Below, one piece after another: positions 24,773 through 35,798 of a DNA stretch of 37,228 nt. The notes beneath the pieces were generated by a model. It saw only the letters and a program-made list of their open reading frames with translations. It made no database searches and had not been told where the DNA came from. Numbering within the stretch: position 1 is the first letter of the stretch; each line of letters opens with the position of its first letter. The translations under genes were made by a program, and so were the position numbers. The DNA lies in contig JBEKYR010000048.1 in the NCBI GenBank assembly GCA_049510745.1, positions 1-37,228 on the forward strand, written 5' to 3'. Source of the DNA: Verrucomicrobiota bacterium. Its GTDB lineage: Bacteria; Verrucomicrobiota; Verrucomicrobiia; Limisphaerales; Palsa-1400.

Positions 24773-25420
24773 GAACCTGACTGAACCTGACTGGGTTCCT
24801 TCATTCTTTAGCACGATTTCCATGCTGTGGTCGTGGTTCTCTGAGTTTCGGTCGTGGTTCTGGTTTATTGCAGAATTGCCGCGATTCAGCGCGATTTGGC
24901 CTTAAAGCAATCCACTGGAATGCAGCCCCGAAATTCTGCGGGGTAAATGTTCAGAAGCAGACCAAAGATGGGTTCGTTTGGCAAAAAACCGCTTTTCGCT
25001 CATGGTCTTTCCGATAGCTCCATCGTCAGGGGCGGCGGAATGGCCTTGAGGAGCCTTGACTTGGCTTGACCAGCCTTGACTGGGCTTGGCCCTCACCCAC
25101 CCCCCTCCCCCTGTTGTTTGGGGTTTGATTTAGTCTGATTTAGTCTGATTTAGTTTGATTTGGGCTTGATTTACCTTGACGGAAATCTGTTGGACGGGCC
25201 GGACCGGCAAATTCTGCCGGTCGAACGCCGGCCCGTAAGTCCGGCGACGGGTTGCCAGCGGATCGCCTGGAGCCGAAGCCCCTCCTTTCCAATGTGATGG
25301 TTCTTATTCTCATCAAATGAGGTATTATCACGTTTTATTGGAATATGCAAGGGTTTTTCCCAGGAGAAAAGGATTTAACCGCAGAGGGCGCAAAAAGCAC
25401 AGAGATAAGCACTTATGAAT
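24773..25420. repeat. Non-coding mosaic of short tandem repeats and hairpins
   Basis: GAACCTGACT x2 (about 24773-24792); GGTCGTGGTTCT x2 (24829, 24850); CTTGAC at 10-bp period (about 25055-25090); TGATTTAGTY x3 (about 25126-25160); long hairpin at about 25194-25236. Confidence 0.65.
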
Positions 25421-25795
25421 GTTTTGGCCGACTCAAAACACGATTCGGTGAATTTTTTTTGCCGCCGTCCGCTCGCTCGGTTTCCTTTGTTGCTCTGGGG
25501 AGAATTGAATAACCGATTGTTTGAGCCGTCGTCGCGTTCGCTGAAATCAACGGGCAGACTTAAAAACTGGGCGACACTCCGGGTTGACGCCTGTGAGACG
25601 CTTGCGGAATTTACAGGAAGCCGCATTGGCTTTTAGAAATGCAGGCCGCTCTTTGTAAAAAGTTCTCGACACGGTTCTGAAATAGGCGTATTCAGCGGAC
25701 GGATGGAAAATGCGGGCTTCAAAGTGCCATTTTGATTTGGCCGTTGTTTTTGATTCTCCGGTTCTCCAAGGGCTCAGACAACAAACAGAATGTTT

Positions 25796-27040
25796 ATGGC
25801 AATCGACGATAAAAAGCAACCGCTTGATAACGGAGCGGCACGGGGTACCACTGTTGAAATCCCATCAAAACGTCAGGTGAATCCTGTTGTGGATAAAAAA
25901 TCCGGCGAAAAATCCAAACGCAAACATAAGCGGACTCGCGCCGTGAGACCGTATCCTTCCTCCTCTTTTGAAGAGGCTTTAAAGCTTGCCGAAGCAATTC
26001 AGACGATTGCTGCTGGCGGCAGGGTGCGTCGCCTAACCCTGTGCGAACAAATGAAAATCTCGCCGACAAGCAGTAGTACGACAATACTCATTACCAACTC
26101 CGGAAAGTATGGAATCACGAGGGGTAGTTATGCCGCTGATTGGATTGAACTAACTCCTGATGGGAAACTCGCTTCCAGCCGTGATACGCCAGCCGGAGAC
26201 AAGCTCAAGGCGAAATTCTGTCTGGCGATTGAAGGGGTTAAACCATTCAACGCTCTTTATGAGGAATACAAGAAACAGAAGTTGCCCGCACACGCTGTTA
26301 TAAAGGATTTTTTACAGTCCGCCAAACTTCGTGTGGAGAATTTCGAGGAATGTTTAGACACTTTCATCGTTAACGCGAAGTTTCTTGGGTTGCTGCGCAC
26401 CATTGCCGGGTCTGAAGTTCTTATTCCAATCGACCAAGCGATTGATGAGGCACCCACCGCGCCATTACCAGCGACCATTGGAGTTACAACATCCATCGCA
26501 TCTGGGGAGACGAGCAACGAAAAAACTGGCGAAGACAAGACGGACTGGGCGACGACCTGTTTCTATATTTCACCCATTGGCAAAGAAAATAGCGAGGAAC
26601 GAAAGCACTCGGATTTGTTTCTTAACTCGATAGTTGAGCCTGCATTGAAGGAATTCGGTTTGCGAGTTGTGCGAGGGGATAAAATTGGTGAGGCGGGAAT
26701 GATAACATCGCAGATCTTGGAACACATCCTTAAAGCAAAGCTTGTAGTTGTTGACTTGTCATTTCATAATCCGAACGCGTTTTACGAACTGGCCATCCGT
26801 CACGCGTGCAAATTGCCCATTGTACAAATCATTCGAAAGGCCGACGCCATTCCGTTCGATTTGAATCAGATACGCACAATACCCATAGATAACACGGACA
26901 TCTACACGTTAATCCCTCACCTTGAGACATATAGATCCGAGGTTGCGACTCACGTTCGGCAAGCACTTGCCAACCCAGACAGTGTCAGCAATCCGCTGAC
27001 TGTTTTTTGTCCGGGATTTCAAATTACCCTGCCGCCGTAG
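25796..27040 (+). CDS. Predicted winged-helix-like N-terminal domain fused to a nucleoside 2-deoxyribosyltransferase (NDT)/TIR-like domain; candidate defence effector
   Basis: C-terminal CFYISPIG...IVEPAL...RGDKI...GMITSQILEHI...VVVDLSFHNPNAFYELAIRHA...IPFDL pattern; AT-richer than the backbone. Confidence 0.7.
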   Translation: MAIDDKKQPLDNGAARGTTVEIPSKRQVNPVVDKKSGEKSKRKHKRTRAVRPYPSSSFEEALKLAEAIQTIAAGGRVRRLTLCEQMKISPTSSSTTILITNSGKYGITRGSYAADWIELTPDGKLASSRDTPAGDKLKAKFCLAIEGVKPFNALYEEYKKQKLPAHAVIKDFLQSAKLRVENFEECLDTFIVNAKFLGLLRTIAGSEVLIPIDQAIDEAPTAPLPATIGVTTSIASGETSNEKTGEDKTDWATTCFYISPIGKENSEERKHSDLFLNSIVEPALKEFGLRVVRGDKIGEAGMITSQILEHILKAKLVVVDLSFHNPNAFYELAIRHACKLPIVQIIRKADAIPFDLNQIRTIPIDNTDIYTLIPHLETYRSEVATHVRQALANPDSVSNPLTVFCPGFQITLPP

Positions 27041-27087
27041 CCGATCAGTCTGCCAAATTGCCTTGGGGTCTGTTAAATCCACACCCA

Positions 27088-28791
27088 ATGAACCGCCTTT
27101 TCTTCGGCGACAATCTCAAGTGGCTGCGCGACACGAAGATTTTTCCTGACGCCAGCGTTGACCTCGTTTATCTGGACCCGCCGTTCAATTCCAATGCGGA
27201 TTACAATGTCCTGTTCCGCGAGGCTTCCGGCGAGGCGAGCCAGGCGCAGTTTCACGCCTTCACGGACACTTGGAACTGGGCGGACGCGGCGCAGACCTAC
27301 GCCGAATTTGTGGACGACTGCCCGAACACCGCTGTGGTGGAGATGATGGACGCGTTGCATGATCTGCTCAGAAATTCCCCGATGATGGCGTATCTGGCGA
27401 TGATGGCGCCGCGCCTGGCGGAACTGCATCGCATCCTCAAGCCCACCGGCAGCCTTTATCTCCATTGCGACCCGACCGCGAGCCATTATCTCCGAGTGAT
27501 GCTCGACGGAATCTTCGGTTCAAAGCGGATGCTGAATGAAATCTGTTGGAAGCGTTCCGCGGCGCACAGCGACACCAAGCAGGGAATGAGGCGGTGCGGT
27601 CGGATTCATGATTTGCTTTTGCTTTATGCAAAGGCGGACAAATACACTTGGAATCCAATCTGGACCCCTTACACCGCGGATTACTTTGAGCAGGAATATC
27701 GGCACGTTGCGCCAGACGGACGAAAATACAAAGAAACCGATTTGACGGCAGCCAAACCCGGGGGAGAGGTTGAGTATGAGTGGCGGGTGAAACGGCAAAA
27801 GAAAAAGGGCAAGCGTTGGGAAGCCGATCTGACCGACGAGTACAGGTCGCCGAAAACGAATTTTGAATATCGCGGAGTCAGGCCGTACCAAGGCCGTTTC
27901 TGGGCGTACAAAAAGGACAATCTTGTTGGCTTCGCCCGAGCTGGAAAATTGATTCATCGGAAGACGGGAATGCCCCGGTTGATGCAGTTCTCAGATGAGA
28001 TGCCCGGCATTCCGCTTCAAGATTTGTGGACGGATATTCCGCCGGAGTCGGGCGCAAATGATCTGGGTTATCCAACGCAAAAGCCGCAGGCGTTGTTGGA
28101 ACGAATTATTTCCACGAGCAGCAATGCGGGCGACACCGTGCTCGATCCGTTTTGCGGTTGCGGCACAACGGTTCACGCGGCGCATAAACTCGGCCGGCAA
28201 TGGATTGGCATTGATGTCACTTACCTCGCCGTCAATCTGATCAAACGCCGGCTCAAAGACGCTTTCGGCGATGACGTCCAGTTTGAGGAACGCGGCCAAC
28301 CGACGGACTTCGAGAGCGCGAAGGAGCTGGCGAAATTGGACAAGTGGCAGTTCCAGCAATGGGCGCTTTCGCTGATTGAGGCGCGCCCGCGCACGGAAGG
28401 CGACGGCAAGGGCGCGGATCGCGGCGTGGACGGGATGCTCTATTTCTACGAGAGCAAAGAGAAGCGCGAGAGAATCCTGGTGCAGGTCAAAGGCGGCGGC
28501 GTGCAGCGCGGCGACGTGGCGAAGTTGCTCGGCGACGTCAACAATCAGAAGTTCGTCGCGGGCATTCTGGTTACTCTGGAAAAACCGACCAAGCCGATGC
28601 GCGAAGAAGCGGCGGATGCAGGCCGTTACGGATCGAAGCTGTGGCACGACAAGGATTACCCCAAAATCCAGATTCTCACGATTGAAGGATTGTTGAGCGG
28701 CGCGGAGCGGATCGAAGCGCCGCCGCAAGTGAACCCCTTCGCCAAAGCGCAACGAGAGGCCAAGCCGGAAAAGCAGCCGGATCTGATCTAG
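27088..28791 (+). CDS. Beta-class N6/N4 DNA methyltransferase fused to a C-terminal Mrr-like restriction endonuclease domain
   Basis: Motif IV DPPF, YPTQKP, motif I VLDPFCGCGTT; C-terminal FQQWA...DRGVDG...VQVKGG (PD-QxK). Confidence 0.88.
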   Translation: MNRLFFGDNLKWLRDTKIFPDASVDLVYLDPPFNSNADYNVLFREASGEASQAQFHAFTDTWNWADAAQTYAEFVDDCPNTAVVEMMDALHDLLRNSPMMAYLAMMAPRLAELHRILKPTGSLYLHCDPTASHYLRVMLDGIFGSKRMLNEICWKRSAAHSDTKQGMRRCGRIHDLLLLYAKADKYTWNPIWTPYTADYFEQEYRHVAPDGRKYKETDLTAAKPGGEVEYEWRVKRQKKKGKRWEADLTDEYRSPKTNFEYRGVRPYQGRFWAYKKDNLVGFARAGKLIHRKTGMPRLMQFSDEMPGIPLQDLWTDIPPESGANDLGYPTQKPQALLERIISTSSNAGDTVLDPFCGCGTTVHAAHKLGRQWIGIDVTYLAVNLIKRRLKDAFGDDVQFEERGQPTDFESAKELAKLDKWQFQQWALSLIEARPRTEGDGKGADRGVDGMLYFYESKEKRERILVQVKGGGVQRGDVAKLLGDVNNQKFVAGILVTLEKPTKPMREEAADAGRYGSKLWHDKDYPKIQILTIEGLLSGAERIEAPPQVNPFAKAQREAKPEKQPDLI

Positions 28792-28814
28792 GCAATCACC
28801 AAGCCGATACTAAT

Positions 28815-30128
28815 TCAGATGAACTCGTTGATCAGGTTCTCCAAGAATTCCTGCCGCCCGCTCGTGTTGGCGGCCGGTTCGCCCTTCTTCAACATGAATT
28901 TTTCCAGCGCCTCGAAGCTGCTCTTGCCCGACTCGATTTCCCGGCCAAGGCCGCTGTCCCACGAGCTGTACCGCTGCCGGATAAACTCCGCCAGACGGCC
29001 ATCCTTGCGGATCGCGGAGGCGATTTTGAGGCCGCGCGCGAAGGCGTCCATGCCCCCGATGTGGGCGTAAAAGAGGTCGATCGGCTCAAAACTCTCGCGC
29101 CGCACCTTGGCGTCGAAATTCACGCCGCCGGTGGTCAGGCCGCCGGCCTTCAAAATGGTCCACATGCACTGCGTGGTCAGGTAGATGTCGGTCGGAAACT
29201 GGTCGGTGTCCCAGCCGAGCAGCAAATCGCCGGTGTTGGCGTCGATCGAGCCGAGGGCGCCGGCGGCGGCGGCCACTTCCAGCTCGTGTTGCATGGTGTG
29301 GCCGGCCAGGGTGGCGTGATTGGTTTCCAGGTTCAGCTTCAGAGGGCCGAGCAGATCGTACTGGCGCAGAAAATTCAGGCAGGCCGCCGCGTCGGAATCG
29401 TATTGATGTTTGGTTGGCTCCTTCGGTTTCGGCTCGATGTAGAACTGGCCTTTGAACCCGATTTTCTTTTTGTGATCGACCGCCATGTGCAGGAATTTTG
29501 CCAGGTGATCCAACTCGCGCTTGAGATCGGTGTTGAGCAGGGTCCAATAGCCCTCGCGTCCGCCCCAAAAAACGTAGCCCGCCCCGCCCAGTTCATGGGT
29601 CACCTCGATCGCTTTCTTGGCCTGGGCGGCGGCGTAGGCGAAGACCTCGGCGTTGCAACTGGTGGCCGCGCCGTGGACAAAGCGCGGATGGGCAAACAGG
29701 CAGGCCGTCCCCCAGAGCAACCCAACCCCGGTCCGTTGCTGTTCCTCCCGCAGCACCTTGACGACGGCGTCGAGGTTTTTGTTCGTTTGCGCCAGGGTGG
29801 CGCCTTCGGGCGCGATATCGCGGTCGTGAAAGGCGTAAAAGGGCGCGCCGAGCTTCTCAAAAAACTCGAAGGCCACCCGCGCCCGCCGGCGGGCGTTGTC
29901 CAGCGAATCGCTGTTGTCGTCCCACGGGCGGTTCATGGTCGGGGCGCCGAACATGTCCGAGCCGCGGCCGCGGAAGGTGTGCCAATAGACGACCGAGAAG
30001 CGCAGGTGCTCGCGCATGGTCTTGCCGTCGATGACCTCGGTGGCGTTGTAATGTTTAAAGGCGAGGGGATTCTTTGACTTGGGGCCTTCGTACTGGATGG
30101 GTGATATATTTGGAAATGCTTGTGTCAT
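28815..30128 (-). CDS. xylA: Xylose isomerase (class II)
   Basis: [52 protein letters not shown]. Confidence 0.97.
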
Positions 30129-30147
30129 AATTTGTCCTGGCCAATAT

Positions 30148-30321
30148 CTAAAGAAAAACCGCGCGCGGCGCAATTAGAATTTTCAGATTTTTCAATGTTC
30201 GATGTTTTTCAAGTTGCTCATTCGGTTTGGCCAGTTCGGCGGCCCTGGCCCGGCGCAATTCGGTTTCCAGGCGCTTGCGCCGCTGCGGAAGAGAGTAGCC
30301 GGGTGGCAGGATTGGGCGCAT
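30148..30321 (-). pseudogene. Partial duplicate of the small gene at 32932-33138 (first 32 codons conserved, unrelated tail)
   Basis: MRPILPPGYSLPQRRKRLETELRRARAAELAK, then reads into AT-rich repeat-like DNA. Confidence 0.6.
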
Positions 30322-30351
30322 CGGTTTAACTCTCCCGCAGTTGCTGCGCCA
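30226..30351. repeat. Direct repeat copy A (126 bp)
   Basis: Matches 33043-33168 with 8 mismatches and no indels by manual alignment (offset 2817). Confidence 0.93.
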
Positions 30352-30447
30352 TCCGACCACCCTCAACGCCCTGCTGCCCCGCGACGTCGCCTTAAGTTTC
30401 CTGGCGGGCATCATCGCCGAAGCGAACAAACTGACCCGCGTCGCCCA

Positions 30448-31593
30448 TTACATAAAAACCCTAAACTCAGTTTGAACCGGGGACGGTGCTAAAATCGAAG
30501 TGAGCGGAAGTGGTTTGGGCCGATTCGCGAAATTGGCTGCATCAACAGCAAAAGACAAAGTGCTTTTGAAGCAGCCGTGCAAATATGCGGCAAGGGACAC
30601 AGCTTTCGCCCAAGATTTGTTTTTCTCCAATGTCAGATACGATTGTGGAGGGGTGAGGTTCTCATTCAGCAGTTGTGAGATTTGAACGAGTGGAAATCGA
30701 TCACGGTACGGCCTGACATCATCCAGTTCGATTGCATAAACCTCATCAGCGCCCTTCACGTACAGGTCAAATTCGAGGCGAGAGCAGCCCACATGGTCGT
30801 GAAATTGATTCCAAATTACTTCGGGTTTGTTGGCCACAATTCTCGTGATTGTTGCTTCGCCAACCAAACTGCTTACAGGAGCGGAAGCATATAAGTTGAT
30901 CCTGTGGCCGAGCCATCGAGTTGAAAACTTGCGCCGAATCTCAACAGTTTTTTTCTTTTGGAGAATTCGGTCGGCAAATTGTGGCTGTATTGACAACAGC
31001 AACTGATTGTCTGGAGAAAATCCGCCGAATGCGTAGAGATCAGCCAACTTTGGAATTTTCTCGAGAACCGATCTCCAGACACCTCGAAAGTTCCCGGTGC
31101 ATTGCAGTTCCTTGTCGAAAAGACGATACTGTGTTTCAGCGAGTTCTGCGGGTGAAAACCCAAAAGATGTAAAAAATCCACTCTGTCGTTGCCAAACACT
31201 TTCAGGCAATGTGAAATGAACGCTTTTTGCGAGGTCACGAATCTCAAGAGCCATGAGCGAAAAGAACACTTCACCCAAATGCGCATCGCGTATTTGTTCG
31301 TTTATGCGAAGGTGACAGAATTTCGCGTTGCTCCCCTTCTTCACTACCGCCGACGCGACAGGGCAATCATCAATATAACCGATGAATGCGACGCGCTCGA
31401 CTTGTCGGATTCCGGGCAGCACTTTCTGCTGATACCAGCGCTCGATTTCCGGGTACATTCGCTCGTTTGCCAGAATTAGATCCCTGAAATTCGAAAGATG
31501 ATCTGTTTTGCAGCGGACGTCACCCTCCGCCAAGCGAACGATCTTGAAATCTCGCCTTACTGCTTCGTGAGTTGAAATGCTTCTGGCGCTCAT
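30448..31593 (-). CDS. GNAT-like acetyltransferase fused to an ASCH/PUA-like domain
   Basis: N-part YPEIERWYQQKV...SAVVKK...KFCHLRI...RDAHLG...FFTSFGF (GNAT-like); C-part LLSIQPQFADRILQKKKTVEIRR...LYASAPV...PPQSY (ASCH). Start 31593 or 31596. Confidence 0.75.
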   Translation of the reverse strand: MSARSISTHEAVRRDFKIVRLAEGDVRCKTDHLSNFRDLILANERMYPEIERWYQQKVLPGIRQVERVAFIGYIDDCPVASAVVKKGSNAKFCHLRINEQIRDAHLGEVFFSLMALEIRDLAKSVHFTLPESVWQRQSGFFTSFGFSPAELAETQYRLFDKELQCTGNFRGVWRSVLEKIPKLADLYAFGGFSPDNQLLLSIQPQFADRILQKKKTVEIRRKFSTRWLGHRINLYASAPVSSLVGEATITRIVANKPEVIWNQFHDHVGCSRLEFDLYVKGADEVYAIELDDVRPYRDRFPLVQISQLLNENLTPPQSYLTLEKNKSWAKAVSLAAYLHGCFKSTLSFAVDAANFANRPKPLPLTSILAPSPVQTEFRVFM

Positions 31594-31602
31594 CACTATC
31601 CC

Positions 31603-32796
31603 TTAATGATACCACAGTTTAAAGAATTTTGAAAGTTGGAGGGTCTGCGTTCCATAAGTGCTCTTTTTATCCGAATCTTCCGACATGCGATAAAAGGTTA
31701 AACGGGCCATCACTTCTTCATTCGTCAGCGTCAGCCCGACATCGTGACCTCTGACCTCGAAAATCAAAGGAGTTCCATTAATTCCATCATCACGCTCGAA
31801 ACCGAACCGAGGGTGAACAAATCCAGCGTAATGGATTCTCATTTCGCCGATTGTCTCATCCGTCGCGCGGCAATACACGGCGACGCCGGGAGGAAGGGCA
31901 ATCCTTTCTTTGGAGCGCAAAATGTAGAATTTCTCCTTTTCGATCCTCAGGAATTTTCGTTCTTCTGACTCCTCACAGGGCAACAATTCCCAATACATCT
32001 TCGGGTCGGTCATTTTCTCCCCCCACAAGGGAATCCGTTCTGCATTCAAGGGTTGTTTTGCGCAAAAGGCGCACCCGGTTTCGCCCTCGCAAAGTTCTAC
32101 GTTCTGCAGATCAACGGACAAAGTACCATCGTTTTGAGTTCGACGGAAATTCGACGTGGCAGCGGTCCTGTCGCGACGCAGAACGGATTCGTATAAAACT
32201 TGTCCGCGAATCTCACAATCTTCGGGTTTGCCTTTGAACAATCGAAGCTGCGACAACGCAGTGCCGACTCTCACGCGAACGTCGAAAGTCATTGAGGTGA
32301 CTTCAATGAACATGTGGCCCGTCTGCTTGCGGCCTTTCTTCTTTCCGGCGTGGGCTGGATCAAACGACTCGTACGTGTCCATACCGTCCACGATCAGGCG
32401 AGCCAGCACATCTACACGCCCAACGGTGCTTTTCGCCGTCGCTTGACCATAAATTTCGTCTGATCCCAAGAGAGGAGAACCGAGTTCCTGTTGGACTCGA
32501 AAAACATACGTCTGACGATGCTCAAGCGGATAAACGCCATCACTTGAAGGTTTGATCCGCTCTGCAAATTTGCTGTCTTTCAGAACACTCTGTTCATAAC
32601 TTCCACCGAAAGGCTTCACGGTACCTCGAAGCATTCGGTATCCTTCGCAACTGAGGGTCAGATCGAGGGCGGAACCGTCGATTGAGTTCTTATCATCCAA
32701 ATTGACGTGGTTCAGCCAACCTTTCTTGGCGAGCTTAGTGACCTGATGTTCGGACAACACGCCTGGCACCCAACTCCGTGTACAGGACGAAATCAT
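31603..32796 (-). CDS. dcd: 2'-deoxycytidine 5'-triphosphate deaminase, long DCD family (duplicated dUTPase-like fold)
   Basis: SALDLTL, AKSTVGRVDVLARLI, LSQLRL, FYILRSKERI, GEMRIHYAGFVHPRFG, FEVRGH, YGTQTLQLSKFF. Confidence 0.85.
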   Translation of the reverse strand: MISSCTRSWVPGVLSEHQVTKLAKKGWLNHVNLDDKNSIDGSALDLTLSCEGYRMLRGTVKPFGGSYEQSVLKDSKFAERIKPSSDGVYPLEHRQTYVFRVQQELGSPLLGSDEIYGQATAKSTVGRVDVLARLIVDGMDTYESFDPAHAGKKKGRKQTGHMFIEVTSMTFDVRVRVGTALSQLRLFKGKPEDCEIRGQVLYESVLRRDRTAATSNFRRTQNDGTLSVDLQNVELCEGETGCAFCAKQPLNAERIPLWGEKMTDPKMYWELLPCEESEERKFLRIEKEKFYILRSKERIALPPGVAVYCRATDETIGEMRIHYAGFVHPRFGFERDDGINGTPLIFEVRGHDVGLTLTNEEVMARLTFYRMSEDSDKKSTYGTQTLQLSKFFKLWYH

Positions 32797-32931
32797 AACG
32801 ACAATACCACCGCATTTTAATTTCCGGGTTGAGGATACCCCAAAAACTGAAATGTGGAAAGAAAAATTCACAAAAACTCGCACCGAGTTTCGTGGCAGCG
32901 GTACGGTTCTGAACTGAATGGACGGCCCATC

Positions 32932-33138
32932 TCAGACGCCCCATAAAACGGGGCCATCTCGCCAAAACAAATCCTCTCCCAGTCGCTTCTTCACTTCGGC
33001 CTGGATTTCTTTTTCGATCTTGGCGCGCTCCGCGACGGTGGCTTTGGCCAGTTCGGCCGCCCTGGCCCGGCGTAATTCGGCTTCCAGGCGCTTGCGCCGC
33101 TGCGGGAGCGAGTAGCCGGGTGGCAGGATTGGGCGCAT
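32932..33138 (-). CDS. Small basic helical hypothetical protein (68 aa)
   Basis: Starts 4 nt after the aroD stop; 4 of 5 differences from the duplicate copy are synonymous in this frame. Confidence 0.7.
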   Translation of the reverse strand: MRPILPPGYSLPQRRKRLEAELRRARAAELAKATVAERAKIEKEIQAEVKKRLGEDLFWRDGPVLWGV

Positions 33139-33168
33139 CGGTTTAACTCTTTCGCAGTTGCCGCGCCA
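33043..33168. repeat. Direct repeat copy B (126 bp)
   Basis: Covers the last aroD codons plus the 5' half of the small gene; matches 30226-30351. Confidence 0.93.
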
Positions 33169-33844
33169 ATTCCGCCGCCGACATCTGTCCCGGCGCGGTG
33201 GGTTTGTCCAGATACCCATACGTCAGGCACGAACCGAGTTTGGCGAAGGAAATCCGCGTCCCGCTCCACGCCTGGCCCATGCCGATCACACACAACGGCT
33301 TGACCCAGGATCGCTGGAGCAGCGACTCCAGGACGCCCGCGTCGCTCTCCTGGTTGATCATCGTGGAGATTTTGACAATCGAGCCGATGGTCTGCCCGTT
33401 CTCGACAATCGCGCAAAGTTCCTCCAACGACGGCGTCTTCCGAAAATGATGATAAGAGACGATGCAGGCCTTTTGCTGTTTCGCGGCCTCCCCGGCCACC
33501 GCCCGGCAGATGACGCTGCTCAGTTCGACATCCACGCCCGCCAGTCCGCCCAGGGCCTGCCGGTAAATCTCCAGGCGCGGCGCGTCATCCGCCTCCCAGT
33601 CGCCGCCTTCGGAGCGCAGCCGCGCGGTCAGGAGCACCGGTTTGCCGCCCGCTTCGATGGCCTGGCAGCGCTCCAGCCAATTGGCCGGCCGCGAAGTTTT
33701 GTCCAGCCGCACTTCGACAATATCGCCGGCAAAGTCGCCGGCACCGGAGGCTTCCAACGACGAGAGCGTCCCCACCACGCGCGGCACGGAGCCGACCGTC
33801 AGCGCGCCGTTTGCGGTTCGAAAGACAGCAGTCGATCTGGTCAT
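33143..33844 (-). CDS. aroD: Type I 3-dehydroquinate dehydratase
   Basis: DIVEVRLD, LTARLRSEGG, VDVEL, IVSYHHFRKTP, IVKI, IGMG, TAPGQ. Confidence 0.92.
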   Translation of the reverse strand: MTRSTAVFRTANGALTVGSVPRVVGTLSSLEASGAGDFAGDIVEVRLDKTSRPANWLERCQAIEAGGKPVLLTARLRSEGGDWEADDAPRLEIYRQALGGLAGVDVELSSVICRAVAGEAAKQQKACIVSYHHFRKTPSLEELCAIVENGQTIGSIVKISTMINQESDAGVLESLLQRSWVKPLCVIGMGQAWSGTRISFAKLGSCLTYGYLDKPTAPGQMSAAELARQLRKS

Positions 33845-33920
33845 TCTGGAAATGTTACCCGGTCCACGCCGCGAAAAAAACTTTAAACCTTAACCTTGGA
33901 ACTTTAGACTCACTCCCGGT

Positions 33921-34301
33921 ATGATCAAGACCATCATCAAGCCGGCCAAGGCCGCCCCCGCCGCAGGCCCTTACAGTCACGGTGTGCGCGCGGGCGATTT
34001 GCTTTTTTGCGCCGGGCAAATCCCCGTTCTCCCGGAGTCCGGCCAATTGATCGCCGGAGACATCCGCGCGCAAACCGAACGCGTGCTGGAAAACATCAAA
34101 ATCATCCTGCAAGACCAGGGTCTGACGCTGGACAACATTGTCAAGACGACCGTTTTCATGACGAACCTGGCCGATTTCTCCGCCATGAACGAAGTCTATG
34201 CGCGGTTTTTCAACCGGAACCCGCCGGCCCGCACCACCGTGCAGGTCGCCGCCTTGCCGCGTGGCGCGCAGATAGAAATCGAACCCATCGCCCACTACTG
34301 A
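33921..34301 (+). CDS. ridA: RidA family reactive intermediate deaminase
   Basis: AGPYS, AGQIP, VKTTVF, FSAMNEVY, PARTTVQVAALP, IEIE. Confidence 0.93.
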   Translation: MIKTIIKPAKAAPAAGPYSHGVRAGDLLFCAGQIPVLPESGQLIAGDIRAQTERVLENIKIILQDQGLTLDNIVKTTVFMTNLADFSAMNEVYARFFNRNPPARTTVQVAALPRGAQIEIEPIAHY

Positions 34302-34306
34302 ATCTT

Positions 34307-35668
34307 GTGCCGCAGAACCTTGCCATAGCGATTGCCTTCGTTCTGGGCGGGTTGTCGGGCGGGCTGATCGTTTTTCTTATCAAGAAACGCCCCGCCGTCC
34401 AGCCGGACAACCGGCTGGAAGAGGAATTGCGCCAGCAACTGCAACAGCGGGAGAAGGAACTGGCCTCCAGCCGCGAGCAAGTGACCGCGCACGCCACGGC
34501 TCTGGCCGCCGCCAAAGCCAATCAGGAGGCGTCCGAACGCATGCTGGCCGAGAGCCGCGAGCTGCACGCGGCCAATCTTCGCGCGGCCAGGGAAGCCCAG
34601 GACAAAGCCCTGGCGGACCTGCGCGAAACCTTCAAGGCGCTCAGCGCCGATGCCCTGCAACAAAACGCTCCGCAGTTCCTGCAACTGGCCAACGAAACCT
34701 TCGCCAAATTCCAGGCCGCCGCCAAGGGGGATCTGGCCCAGCGCCAGGAAGCCATCGCCTCTTTGGTCCAGCCGTTGAAGGAACAATTGGAAACCTACCA
34801 GCGCCGCCTGCAGCAGAGCGAGACCAGCCAGGCCGCCGTCCTCGGCGAAGTCAAAAAGCAACTGGAAGGTTTGGCCCAAAACAGCCAGGCGCTTTCGACC
34901 GAGACCTTCGCGCTGCGCAGAGTTCTCAGTTCCAACCAGGCCCGCGGGCGCTGGGGCGAGGAAACCTTGCGGCGCGTCGTCGAAGCCGCCGGCCTGAGCC
35001 CCCACTGCGATTTCAGCGAGCAAACCCAGTCCGACGACAAAAAGCCGGACCTGCTCGTCCATTTGCCGGGCAACCGCCTGATCATCGTCGATGCCAAGGT
35101 TCCCGATTTGGATTTCCTGCAGGCCCTCGACGCCGCCGATCCGGCCGCCCGCGCCCAGGCGCTGGGAATTCACGCCGCCAAACTCAAGGACACGATCAAG
35201 GAACTGGCCAAGAAGGATTACCCCGCCCAATTCCCCAACGCGCTGGACTATGTCGTGTTGTTCTTGCCGGCCGAGTCGCTCTTCAGCGCCGCGCTCGAAG
35301 CGGACCGCGAATTGATCCTGTGGGCCGCGCAACGCCAGATCATGCTGGCCACGCCCGCTTCCTTGATTGCCTTGTTGCGCGCCGTCAGCGTCAGTTGGCA
35401 GCAACACGCCCAGACGGAGAACGCGCGCGAGATCGCCGCCGCCGCGCAGGAGTTGTTCAACCGCGTCGCCAAATTCTTCGAGCATTTCGAGAAAATCCGC
35501 GCCGGCCTGGAGCGCGCCGGGGCCGCCTACAACGACGCCGTCGGCAGCTACGAGCGCATGGTGCGGCCCGCCGGTGTCAAGCTCAACCAACTGGGCGGCG
35601 GCGCAGCCGTCCGGGAGCTGCCTGAGATCGCGCCGCTTGAAGGGACGCTGCGATTGCCGTCTGTTTGA
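34307..35668 (+). CDS. rmuC: DNA recombination protein RmuC
   Basis: N-terminal TM, coiled coil, RGRWGEETL, PDLLVHLPG...IVDAK, VVLFLPAES, ATPASLIALL. Confidence 0.92.
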   Translation: MPQNLAIAIAFVLGGLSGGLIVFLIKKRPAVQPDNRLEEELRQQLQQREKELASSREQVTAHATALAAAKANQEASERMLAESRELHAANLRAAREAQDKALADLRETFKALSADALQQNAPQFLQLANETFAKFQAAAKGDLAQRQEAIASLVQPLKEQLETYQRRLQQSETSQAAVLGEVKKQLEGLAQNSQALSTETFALRRVLSSNQARGRWGEETLRRVVEAAGLSPHCDFSEQTQSDDKKPDLLVHLPGNRLIIVDAKVPDLDFLQALDAADPAARAQALGIHAAKLKDTIKELAKKDYPAQFPNALDYVVLFLPAESLFSAALEADRELILWAAQRQIMLATPASLIALLRAVSVSWQQHAQTENAREIAAAAQELFNRVAKFFEHFEKIRAGLERAGAAYNDAVGSYERMVRPAGVKLNQLGGGAAVRELPEIAPLEGTLRLPSV

Positions 35669-35690
35669 CAGCCGCCCGACAGCGAAGCGT

Positions 35691-35798
35691 TTCAATGACC
35701 AATTTCAAATTCTCGATTTTCAATTTTCAATGTTCGTTGGATTGAATCGGGACGGCCATTGAAAATTGAAAATTGAAAATCTGTTATTGGTAATTGAA
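35691..35798. repeat. Nested inverted-repeat element built from TTGAAAA heptamers
   Basis: Perfect 17-bp IR ATTTTCAATTTTCAATG 35716-35732 / CATTGAAAATTGAAAAT 35757-35773; outer IR 35691-35703 / 35786-35798 with one mismatch. Confidence 0.82.

Follow-up and report, generated by a model that had tools for sequence, protein, structure and literature searches.

The question raised by this locus is why a dCTP deaminase should be tied to a protein that joins a GNAT domain to an ASCH domain. The two genes lie side by side, at positions 30448 to 32796, in a 37,228-nt stretch of DNA from a Verrucomicrobiota bacterium (GenBank assembly GCA_049510745.1, contig JBEKYR010000048.1, positions 1 to 37,228; hereafter "the window," meaning the whole stretch that was analyzed). 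A preliminary description of the locus had proposed that the two proteins form a defense or modification system converging on cytosine N4. The pair proves to be a genuine module of two genes, conserved and horizontally mobile, apparently unnamed and plausibly defensive, and a conflict role of some kind is probable for it. The deaminase (Dcd) is the predicted effector and the GNAT–ASCH protein the predicted regulator or sensor. The reading that we favor, tentatively, is a phage-defense module whose GNAT–ASCH protein controls a deaminase that would deplete dCTP and give off dUTP. Two findings go beyond the preliminary description: an invariant Asp-to-His replacement in Dcd, and a link between its partner and the GNAT–EVE/ASCH family (PDC-M11, GevT/GevA).

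A Closely Linked Pair of Genes

Both genes are on the minus strand. The upstream gene, dcd, encodes a long two-domain protein of 397 aa and runs from an ATG at 32796 to a stop at 31603 (31603..32796); the GNAT–ASCH fusion gene encodes 382 aa and runs from a GTG at 31596 to a stop at 30448 (30448..31596). The junction, comprising the dcd stop codon and the gap (31597..31605, minus strand), reads on into the second gene as TAA-GGGATA-GTG-ATG, leaving 6 nt to the GTG or 9 nt to the ATG, and a ribosome-binding-like AAGGGA ahead of the GNAT–ASCH gene overlaps the dcd stop codon. The operon and its junction are thus as first described, and from this arrangement we infer that the two genes are translationally coupled. 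The AT-richness noted at the outset is also borne out: the G+C content is 50% in dcd and 48% in the GNAT–ASCH gene, compared with 60% for the genome, and at third codon positions (GC3) it is 0.54 and 0.49, compared with 0.79–0.82 for aroD, xylA, and rmuC.

The pairing recurs far beyond this genome. An alignment search with the GNAT–ASCH protein took in the 80 best-scoring of 105 genome loci, the 80 best-scoring of 383 metagenome loci, and a single viral locus; a dcd homolog was present at 72/80, 72/80, and 1/1 of these, respectively. Where at least 1300 nt of upstream sequence were available, dcd immediately preceded the GNAT–ASCH gene at 66/69 genome loci, 55/56 metagenome loci, and the viral locus (1/1). 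The metagenome loci include duplicates; the distinct full-length pairs number 100, and in 92 of these homologous pairs the open reading frames (ORFs) are at most 50 nt apart. Pairwise identities of the two genes correlate (r = 0.70, among kin that are not independent), and both genes are under purifying selection, with dN/dS ratios of 0.09–0.31 against two close homologs (a third comparison was saturated). No third gene is conserved with the pair, clusters 1–3 being alternative frames over the same two genes. Departures from the standard arrangement are few. In one genome of the host family (G316), found from the Dcd side, the order is reversed, with a GNAT–ASCH gene (30% identity) preceding a Dcd gene (33%); Dcd-side matches in two further genomes (G302 and G939) end at contig edges. 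A single 724-aa protein (P0243) carries Dcd, GNAT, and ASCH fused, and since it has one member on one contig, it may reflect a lost stop codon or an assembly error.

The module is scattered over unrelated soil and sediment bacteria, which record titles place in the Verrucomicrobia, Acidobacteria, Planctomycetes, Myxococcota, Bacteroidota, Spirochaetes, Calditrichaeota, Ignavibacteria, Zixibacteria, and Proteobacteria. It is rare within each group surveyed. Full-length GNAT–ASCH proteins were found in 0/300 other genomes of the host phylum and in 0/250 genomes of the phylum of another host (G333), and a module-type Dcd in 0/300 genomes of the phylum of a third (G331), 7 of which have an ordinary long Dcd. 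Within the host family itself, 3/31 genomes carry a module-type Dcd and 28/31 have no match, and the host genome (G000) has three other Dcd-domain ORFs; the gene is therefore not the vertically inherited dcd of this genome, in keeping with the foreign look first ascribed to it. The G+C content of the module is more than 3 points below that of its flanks in 42/45 loci (median, −10). One module locus is on a viral contig, and none of the 42 matching plasmid records or 33 matching phage records reaches 80% coverage of the full-length GNAT–ASCH protein.

A Histidine at the Motif-3 Aspartate Position of Dcd

Dcd matches Pfam DCD_N and DCD_C above the cut-off, and its model (predicted local distance difference test [pLDDT] score, 92) has the trimeric dUTPase fold of 2R9Q, the sole full-length solved relative (TM score 0.75–0.90; 0.75 by query length). 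The preliminary description was therefore right to set this protein apart from the zinc deaminases of described defense systems. The protein scores 174 bits on NF005734 (PRK07559), below the 283-bit cut-off, and no PADLOC model covers it. In trees built with IQ-TREE (a quick run of 42 rows, with every third module Dcd) and FastTree (34 rows, with a long-branch warning for L276), the module Dcds form a clade separate from 8 acidobacterial and 3 alphaproteobacterial ordinary long Dcds (Shimodaira–Hasegawa-like approximate likelihood ratio test, 100). None of these 11 ordinary proteins has a GNAT–ASCH gene within the 1.5- to 2.5-kb flanks that were fetched.

The residues expected of a deaminase are all present. 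S123, R127, and Q183 in the N-domain and H322, A324, and E347 in the C-domain are invariant in 101/101 aligned Dcds, and motif mapping matches S123, R127, H322, A324, and E347 to E. coli Ser111, Arg115, His121, Ala124, and Glu138, residues that go with dCTP deaminase activity. The aromatic deoxyribose gate, F331, is kept in 97%.

The departure lies in motif 3. Ordinary long Dcds read HYAGFFDPGF (with FMD in Bosea), whereas module Dcds read HYAGF(V/A)HPxF. His328 occupies the position of the motif-3 Asp in 101/101 aligned pairs, in 136/136 motif-bearing ORFs of the 141 examined, and in 119/120 top homologs (the remaining one lacks the motif), as well as in the P0243 fusion and the reversed pair of G316; the Asp itself is present in 11/11 ordinary long Dcds (8/8 acidobacterial and 3/3 alphaproteobacterial) and in 2R9Q. 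According to excerpts of PMC3360063, dUTP hydrolysis cannot proceed without this Asp (E. coli D128, M. tuberculosis D119), which contacts the 3′-OH, and bifunctional enzymes carry an aromatic residue two positions ahead of it, a pattern that the ordinary long Dcds appear to fit. From the bifunctional dCTP deaminase:dUTPase set of M. tuberculosis (Ser102, Asp119, and Gln148), the module enzyme keeps the Ser and Gln, as S123 and Q183, and has His328 for the Asp. With that Asp replaced, the module Dcd would deaminate dCTP without hydrolyzing dUTP, or would have a changed substrate. About 40 substitutions are specific to the clade, several of them near the active site (H328, E314, T120, Y308, and C309), and the long Dcd also has a second, degenerate site with clade-invariant residues. 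In practical terms, the H for D in HYAGFxD is a one-residue marker that separates module Dcds from the housekeeping Dcds with which automatic annotation lumps them. As a separate observation, an Asp-type divergent long Dcd on a Bosea plasmid (L284, 2345-3562) lies beside a DNA methyltransferase and an AAA ATPase.

A GNAT–ASCH Protein Resembling GevT and GevA

The partner protein has no Pfam match above the cut-off, and its nature emerges from structure and profile comparisons. An AlphaFold2 model (pLDDT 87) contains a GNAT fold at about residues 11–176 (Z 14–15), an ASCH fold at 195–343, and a disordered C-terminal tail at 345–382. The ASCH fold is closest to ZmASCH (5GUQ; Z 17.8, root-mean-square deviation 3.0, 143 residues aligned), and by sequence it matches PADLOC PDC-M11B (E 7e-28) and GevA (hhalign 99.7%, 34% identity). 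The GNAT of the window has no PDC-M11A match at E ≤ 1 and aligns with GevT at an hhalign value of 4.7%. The GNATs of a sister clade match PDC-M11A (E 2.5e-7 to 6e-4) and align with GevT over the GNAT and linker (hhalign 80%, E 1.3e-5). Taken together with the GevA-type ASCH, these matches suggest a GevT-type GNAT joined straight to a GevA-type ASCH with the EVE domain missing, and the window protein thus looks like a derivative of the GNAT–EVE/ASCH family. The sister clade returned nothing in viral scans, and its genomic context was seen only in G316. GevT and GevA themselves score as PDC-M11A and PDC-M11B in PADLOC, and in Escherichia phage PhiR47_2 (PV340567) a "GevT toxin" followed by a "GevA antitoxin" stands just behind cI, by GenBank annotation only.

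The GNAT catalytic motifs are unevenly kept. Motif A (R/Q-x-x-G-x-G/A) reads Q/R-D/N-x-H/N/D-L-G in the core clade, with an invariant second Gly; the first Gly is kept in 15/17 sister proteins, among them the protein linked to Dcd in G316, and in 29/75 others. Since the motif is complete in most sister proteins, its imperfection in the core clade is no proof of catalytic death, and the step taken in the preliminary description from a degenerate motif to a sensor GNAT is no more than a possibility. Motif B has a Phe (F142) in 101/101 proteins. GNAT toxins usually have a catalytic Tyr in this motif.

The ASCH domain bears directly on the circuit first proposed for this locus, in which the GNAT would write N4-acetylcytidine in the manner of TmcA or NAT10, the ASCH would erase it in the manner of YqfB, and Dcd would remove the N4 amine. 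All three folds are indeed present, and motif mapping aligns K216 and R221 of the first ASCH motif (K216-x-x-E219-x-R221, in 101/101) with Lys21 and Arg26 of YqfB. The same mapping places an invariant Glu where YqfB has Thr24. TmcA also has helicase and tRNA-binding domains, and the pair has neither; TmcA and NAT10 were not among the fold matches listed for the GNAT, which were tied at Z 12.5–15. The closest ASCH relatives are ZmASCH and GevA, and YqfB is absent both from the 7 Protein Data Bank sequence matches of the GNAT–ASCH protein and from the listed fold matches. According to excerpts of PMC6972931, Thr24 is the nucleophile of YqfB, in the motif Lys21-x-x-Thr24-x-Arg26, and Thr24Ala is inactive. 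Convergence on N4-acetylcytidine is thus highly improbable, and this part of the preliminary description found no support. Of the residues of ZmASCH that part of PMC5615036 assigns to nucleic-acid contacts (Tyr47, Lys53, and Ser128), Tyr47 corresponds to Y236 (98%), Gln127/Ser128 to Q318/S319 (100%/88%), and Lys53 is not kept.

A different reading is a role in base or nucleotide modification. Here, the His-variant Dcd would have a nonstandard substrate or product, perhaps dCTP bearing an acyl group or another modification, the GNAT would write an acyl mark on a base or nucleotide, and the ASCH would read it; the mark could be a self/nonself label or a signaling nucleotide. The clade-specific substitutions near the Dcd active site suggest a new specificity, and excerpts of PMC7641849 and PMC5499597 cite a proposal in which the bases of nucleic acids are acetylated by (PIN)–GNAT–PUA proteins. 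In BapA, a barrel resembling ZmASCH has been modeled to flip out 5-hydroxymethylcytosine, as stated in part of 10.64898/2026.02.25.707755, and relatives of the GNAT occur as standalone proteins in jumbo phages. Against this, the pair has no conserved companion that would point to a pathway, be it a nuclease, a polymerase, a kinase, or another gene, and the standard deaminase residues and the aromatic deoxyribose gate are all kept. On balance, we consider a modification system unlikely. The standalone acetyltransferases (from 201phi2-1, RSL2, RP12, AH04, and other phages) match the GNAT half of a sister protein; gp209 of 201phi2-1 (L274, 3498-3947) is one of them.

Gene Decay and Host Nucleotide Background

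If one member of the pair were harmful without the other, this might be visible in the way the pair decays. After de-duplication, 107 loci offered enough sequence to hold the two genes. Both are intact at 93 of these, dcd is broken at 10 and missing at 3, and at 1 locus both genes are damaged at an assembly gap. Thus dcd is broken, by frameshift, stop, or truncation, or absent beside an intact partner at 13/107 loci, and an intact dcd beside a broken GNAT–ASCH gene was seen at 0/107. In the three hosts of orphan GNAT–ASCH genes that were checked, there is no module Dcd elsewhere in the genome. This order of decay is what would be expected if Dcd were the harmful part, an asymmetry that is partly built in by the sampling. 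Between close relatives, dN is 0.06 for the GNAT–ASCH gene and 0.13–0.15 for dcd.

The last comparison would suit the opposite polarity, in which the GNAT is a toxin held by its own fused ASCH and Dcd is a sensor of nucleotide pools that triggers it when phage disturbs dCTP or dTTP. In this arrangement, orphan GNAT–ASCH genes, being self-inhibited, would be harmless, the more slowly evolving gene would encode the toxin, as GevT is annotated to be beside the antitoxin GevA, and the degenerate second site of the long Dcd, with its clade-invariant residues, could serve in sensing. The alignment of the sister GNATs with GevT points the same way. The core clade, however, lacks the first Gly of motif A and invariably has F142 in motif B, and Dcd keeps a full deaminase catalytic set that a pure sensor would not need. 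We regard a GNAT toxin as a somewhat poorer prospect still than a modification system.

The nucleotide background of the host also bears on a gated deaminase. No trimeric dUTPase was matched in 28/31 genomes of the host family, and the matches in the other 3/31 were weak, that of the host genome being another Dcd; a dimeric dUTPase was likewise absent from the host genome. With the family mostly devoid of dUTPase, a Dcd that released dUTP without a gate should be toxic. Of five module hosts tested, two (G331 and G335) also have an ordinary Dcd, and three (G332–G334) have no other full-length Dcd.

Altogether, the host genome has four Dcd-fold genes that do not look like housekeeping genes and no dUTPase match. 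One of the three outside the module is a short Dcd of 200 aa with Glu at the motif-3 Asp position (L001, 1381-3448, G000:C2), which lies directly downstream of a 497-aa protein without Pfam or PADLOC match and may belong to another Dcd-based module. A second locus (L004, 473-2817, G000:C15), with no PADLOC system, contains a 304-aa ORF without Pfam match, a divergent Dcd with a hydrophobic C terminus, and a deoxynucleoside-kinase-like protein. We take the 304-aa ORF, by eye, to be thymidylate-synthase-like. In the third (L005, 1363-2631, G000:C69), a weak Dcd-like domain is fused to an ankyrin-like region.

Genomic Neighborhoods of the Module

Up to two ORFs on each side of the module were scanned with PADLOC and Pfam at 71 genome loci (249 ORFs, with 9 more from L088 and L167), and four ORFs were scanned at each of 30 arbitrary control sites (120 ORFs; 36 sites were fetched, 1 was skipped, and 5 were dropped for size). 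Any PADLOC match was found at 30/71 module loci and 6/30 control sites (p 0.04). A filter for cross-matches to common domains of housekeeping proteins (GTPases, kinases, Clp, FtsK, ABC, sigma factors, radical SAM, and similar ones) took out 16 module loci and all 6 control sites, leaving defense-type neighbors at 14/71 loci and 0/30 controls (p 0.009, or 0.036 with a caspase at a control site included). Type I restriction–modification, DNA methylases, pAgo-TIR with a UG13 reverse transcriptase, Bil, AbiEi, PDC-M30/41, PDC-S34, and CapP are represented at these 14 loci. Integrases, recombinases, or transposases adjoin the module at five loci, and terminase and portal genes at one. What the neighborhoods describe is a mobile gene pair with a defense leaning, short of proof of defense.

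Two further neighbors may be mentioned here. Pairs of DUF5131 genes (PDC-M30/M41) lie beside the module in three unrelated hosts (L037, L038, and L047). At one locus (L078, 9005-9556), an AAA_17 protein directly follows the GNAT–ASCH gene; part of PMC7641849 lists AAA_17 as an accessory gene typical of GNAT–EVE/ASCH operons.

A Proposed Gated Deaminase and the Evidence Against It

The folds, the tight linkage, the mobility, the clade-specific His, and the purifying selection are the observed basis for proposing a mobile two-gene antiphage module with toxin–antitoxin-like logic. In this model, the effector would be a repurposed long dCTP deaminase that, judging from its conserved residues, retains dCTP deamination. 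Having lost the Asp, it would drain dCTP and release dUTP instead of hydrolyzing it, so that phage DNA synthesis would be starved and would take up uracil. In uninfected cells, the GNAT–ASCH protein would hold the deaminase off. Upon infection, the ASCH domain might bind phage-derived or modified nucleic acid, and the deaminase would be released or switched on, whether by acetylation or by binding; this switching is the least certain step. Stated more generally, and with the same reserve, the pair may be an undescribed immune module whose housekeeping-derived dUTPase-fold enzyme, rewired by the Asp-to-His change, gives off dUTP, or a modified pyrimidine nucleotide of a new kind, in place of dUMP, under the control of a GNAT–ASCH protein that reads phage or modified nucleic acid. 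A complex prediction for Dcd and the GNAT–ASCH protein (score 0.00; mark 0.32) gave no answer and counts for neither side.

A number of observations weigh against a gated, dUTP-releasing effector. The equivalence of H328 with E. coli D128 comes from motif alignment and weak hidden Markov model scores, not from a ligand-bound superposition; the invariance of the His suggests a new role rather than a simple loss; short Dcds, such as that of L001, can have Glu at the motif-3 position, which is thus not strictly Asp everywhere; and subtype B has Glu in place of H322. As to polarity, the GNAT protein is the annotated toxin in GevT/GevA, the opposite of what we propose. The decay data are partly built in, because the loci were picked and ranked by the GNAT–ASCH gene, which biases against broken copies of that gene, and some dcd breaks may be assembly errors. 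Finally, the neighbor filter was post hoc and the control sites were unmatched for foreign DNA, so that the enrichment may reflect only an insertion hotspot. About 80% of the loci (57/71) have no defense-type neighbor, and the defense-island association raised in the preliminary description is modest.

One further point of this kind is a ribonucleotide reductase gene that lies on the same strand, directly or next-but-one upstream of dcd, at four loci (L023, L029, L038, and L043), and is compatible with a metabolic role. The pair might then be a metabolic or sanitizing cassette, providing an extra route to dUTP or dUMP or a clean-up of modified cytidine nucleotides under GNAT–ASCH control. Most loci do lie among housekeeping genes, three of the five tested hosts have no full-length Dcd beyond that of the module, and the host family largely lacks dUTPase. 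A cassette of this sort fits poorly with a module that is rare and patchy and that coexists with an ordinary Dcd in the other two hosts; moreover, the product-hydrolyzing Asp is gone, dcd is often broken, and the relatives of its partner are conflict modules. We therefore judge a metabolic role improbable. The ribonucleotide reductase adjacency itself could reflect either a hotspot or a functional link.

Relation to Known Systems

No named system was recognized in the pair, in agreement with the preliminary description, and no account of a dCTP deaminase with a GNAT–ASCH protein was found in the literature covered, which did not extend to Iyer et al. 2013 or to the supplementary files of the PADLOC preprint, either of which may bear on the matter. 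Nor did we find a paper on GevT/GevA, and the text of the PADLOC candidate preprint does not mention M11 or ASCH.

The nearest relatives of the GNAT–ASCH protein are PDC-M11 and GevTA. Excerpts of PMC7641849 and PMC5499597 describe (PIN)–GNAT–EVE plus ASCH operons as uncharacterized putative toxin–antitoxin systems. The module shares with them the ASCH subfamily, a sporadic, mobile occurrence near defense genes, and possibly, judging from the sister proteins, the GNAT subfamily. It differs in having no EVE, no PIN, and no separate ASCH gene, the GNAT being fused straight to the ASCH, and in its obligate partner, a dCTP deaminase, which those excerpts do not mention. With EVE and the separate ASCH missing and Dcd added, the module is built from PDC-M11/GevTA parts and is not a member of that family.

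On the Dcd side, the obvious comparison is with the dCTP-depleting enzymes of antiphage defense, the type that bears the name AvcD. The defensive deaminase of Tal et al. is, according to part of 10.1101/2021.04.26.441389, a 576-aa protein with a kinase and a zinc-dependent deaminase. The predicted outcome, dCTP loss upon infection, is the same, as is the need of the effector for a control element. The module Dcd, in contrast, has neither of those domains, its whole length being DCD_N and DCD_C with the 2R9Q fold; it also has no PADLOC match and is partnered by a GNAT–ASCH protein. Because the folds differ, the module is not a member of that defense. With the long Dcds of the PRK07559/2R9Q type, the module enzyme shares the two-domain fold, the KSSxGR and HYAGF motifs, and the catalytic Glu, and it differs in its low identity (about 30%), its separate clade, and the His for Asp in motif 3.

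Among ASCH proteins, ZmASCH, a single-stranded RNA binder and nuclease, is the best structural match and shares Y236 and Q318/S319, whereas the module ASCH has lost Lys53 and is fused to a GNAT. YqfB, the N4-acetylcytidine amidohydrolase, shares the superfamily and the Lys and Arg of the first motif and differs in having its Thr24 nucleophile where the module has Glu and in lying outside the sequence and top fold matches.

That GNAT–PUA (EVE/ASCH) modules act on modified nucleic acids has been a prediction for ten years, with a mechanism that reviews call uncharacterized. Here, a module of this kind is tied to an enzyme whose active site is well studied and whose activity can be followed cheaply (dCTP, dUTP, and dUMP by liquid chromatography–mass spectrometry), so that a construct of two genes and 2.4 kb would allow a direct test of what the GNAT and ASCH domains do. 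Should the His variant release dUTP, this would be a second, unrelated fold for dCTP sabotage, invented independently and acting through uracil poisoning, as a possible form of defense, or through nucleotide signaling, and Dcd would be the first defined enzyme partner of the long-unexplained GNAT–PUA modules.

Surroundings of the Pair in the Window

Upstream of dcd is an AT-rich leader of 135 nt (32797..32931, minus strand). A single sigma70-like site (32820-32792) and a hairpin (32891-32873) were seen in this region, neither of them beyond what chance would give, and the promoter and terminator scans overall were likewise at chance level (2 promoter-like sites found, 2.0 expected). Beyond it lies a native 68-aa ORF downstream of aroD (32932..33138, minus strand), which is kept in relatives without the module and is outside the module.

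A 126-nt direct repeat (94%) brackets the pair and has no further copy in the genome, so the repeat-bounded insert of the preliminary description stands as far as the bracketing goes. The repeat is not a mobile-element end: the native copy (33043..33168) consists of the aroD 3′ end and the start of the small ORF, and the second copy (30226..30351), which yields a truncated, chimeric small ORF, is a duplicate of these and probably the scar of a rearrangement or insertion. Flanking repeats are not typical of the module family (6/72 loci; 5/49 module sites against 2/36 control sites), and on these frequencies we rejected them as a general integration signature. Contigs assembled from four DNA runs include no excision joint through the 126-nt repeats and show presence only. 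In a same-genus genome (G301), another gene comes after aroD and the small ORF, and xylA lies on a separate contig, so that there is no clean empty site. Between the GNAT–ASCH stop and the left repeat, about 95 nt (30352-30447) are GC-rich and coding-like, with no convincing match in the host genome or at the loci of relatives.

The preliminary description had also placed the pair next to a defense-like locus. Such a locus is present at 25790-28791, with xylA standing between it and the pair. Its first ORF, AT-rich and 416 aa long, has a weak match to a TIR effector in PADLOC (E 3e-9, residues 268–363); the next encodes a DNA methylase that carries a fused Mrr-like/NA-iREase1 domain, and the locus is likely a defense islet. 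Farther out, 10-nt tandem repeats occur near 25123-25162 (within 25113-25172) and an AT-rich inverted repeat of 47 nt at 35691-35798. Contigs of the four runs join position 25088 to 35754, with 26-nt sides, probably via a shared repeat.

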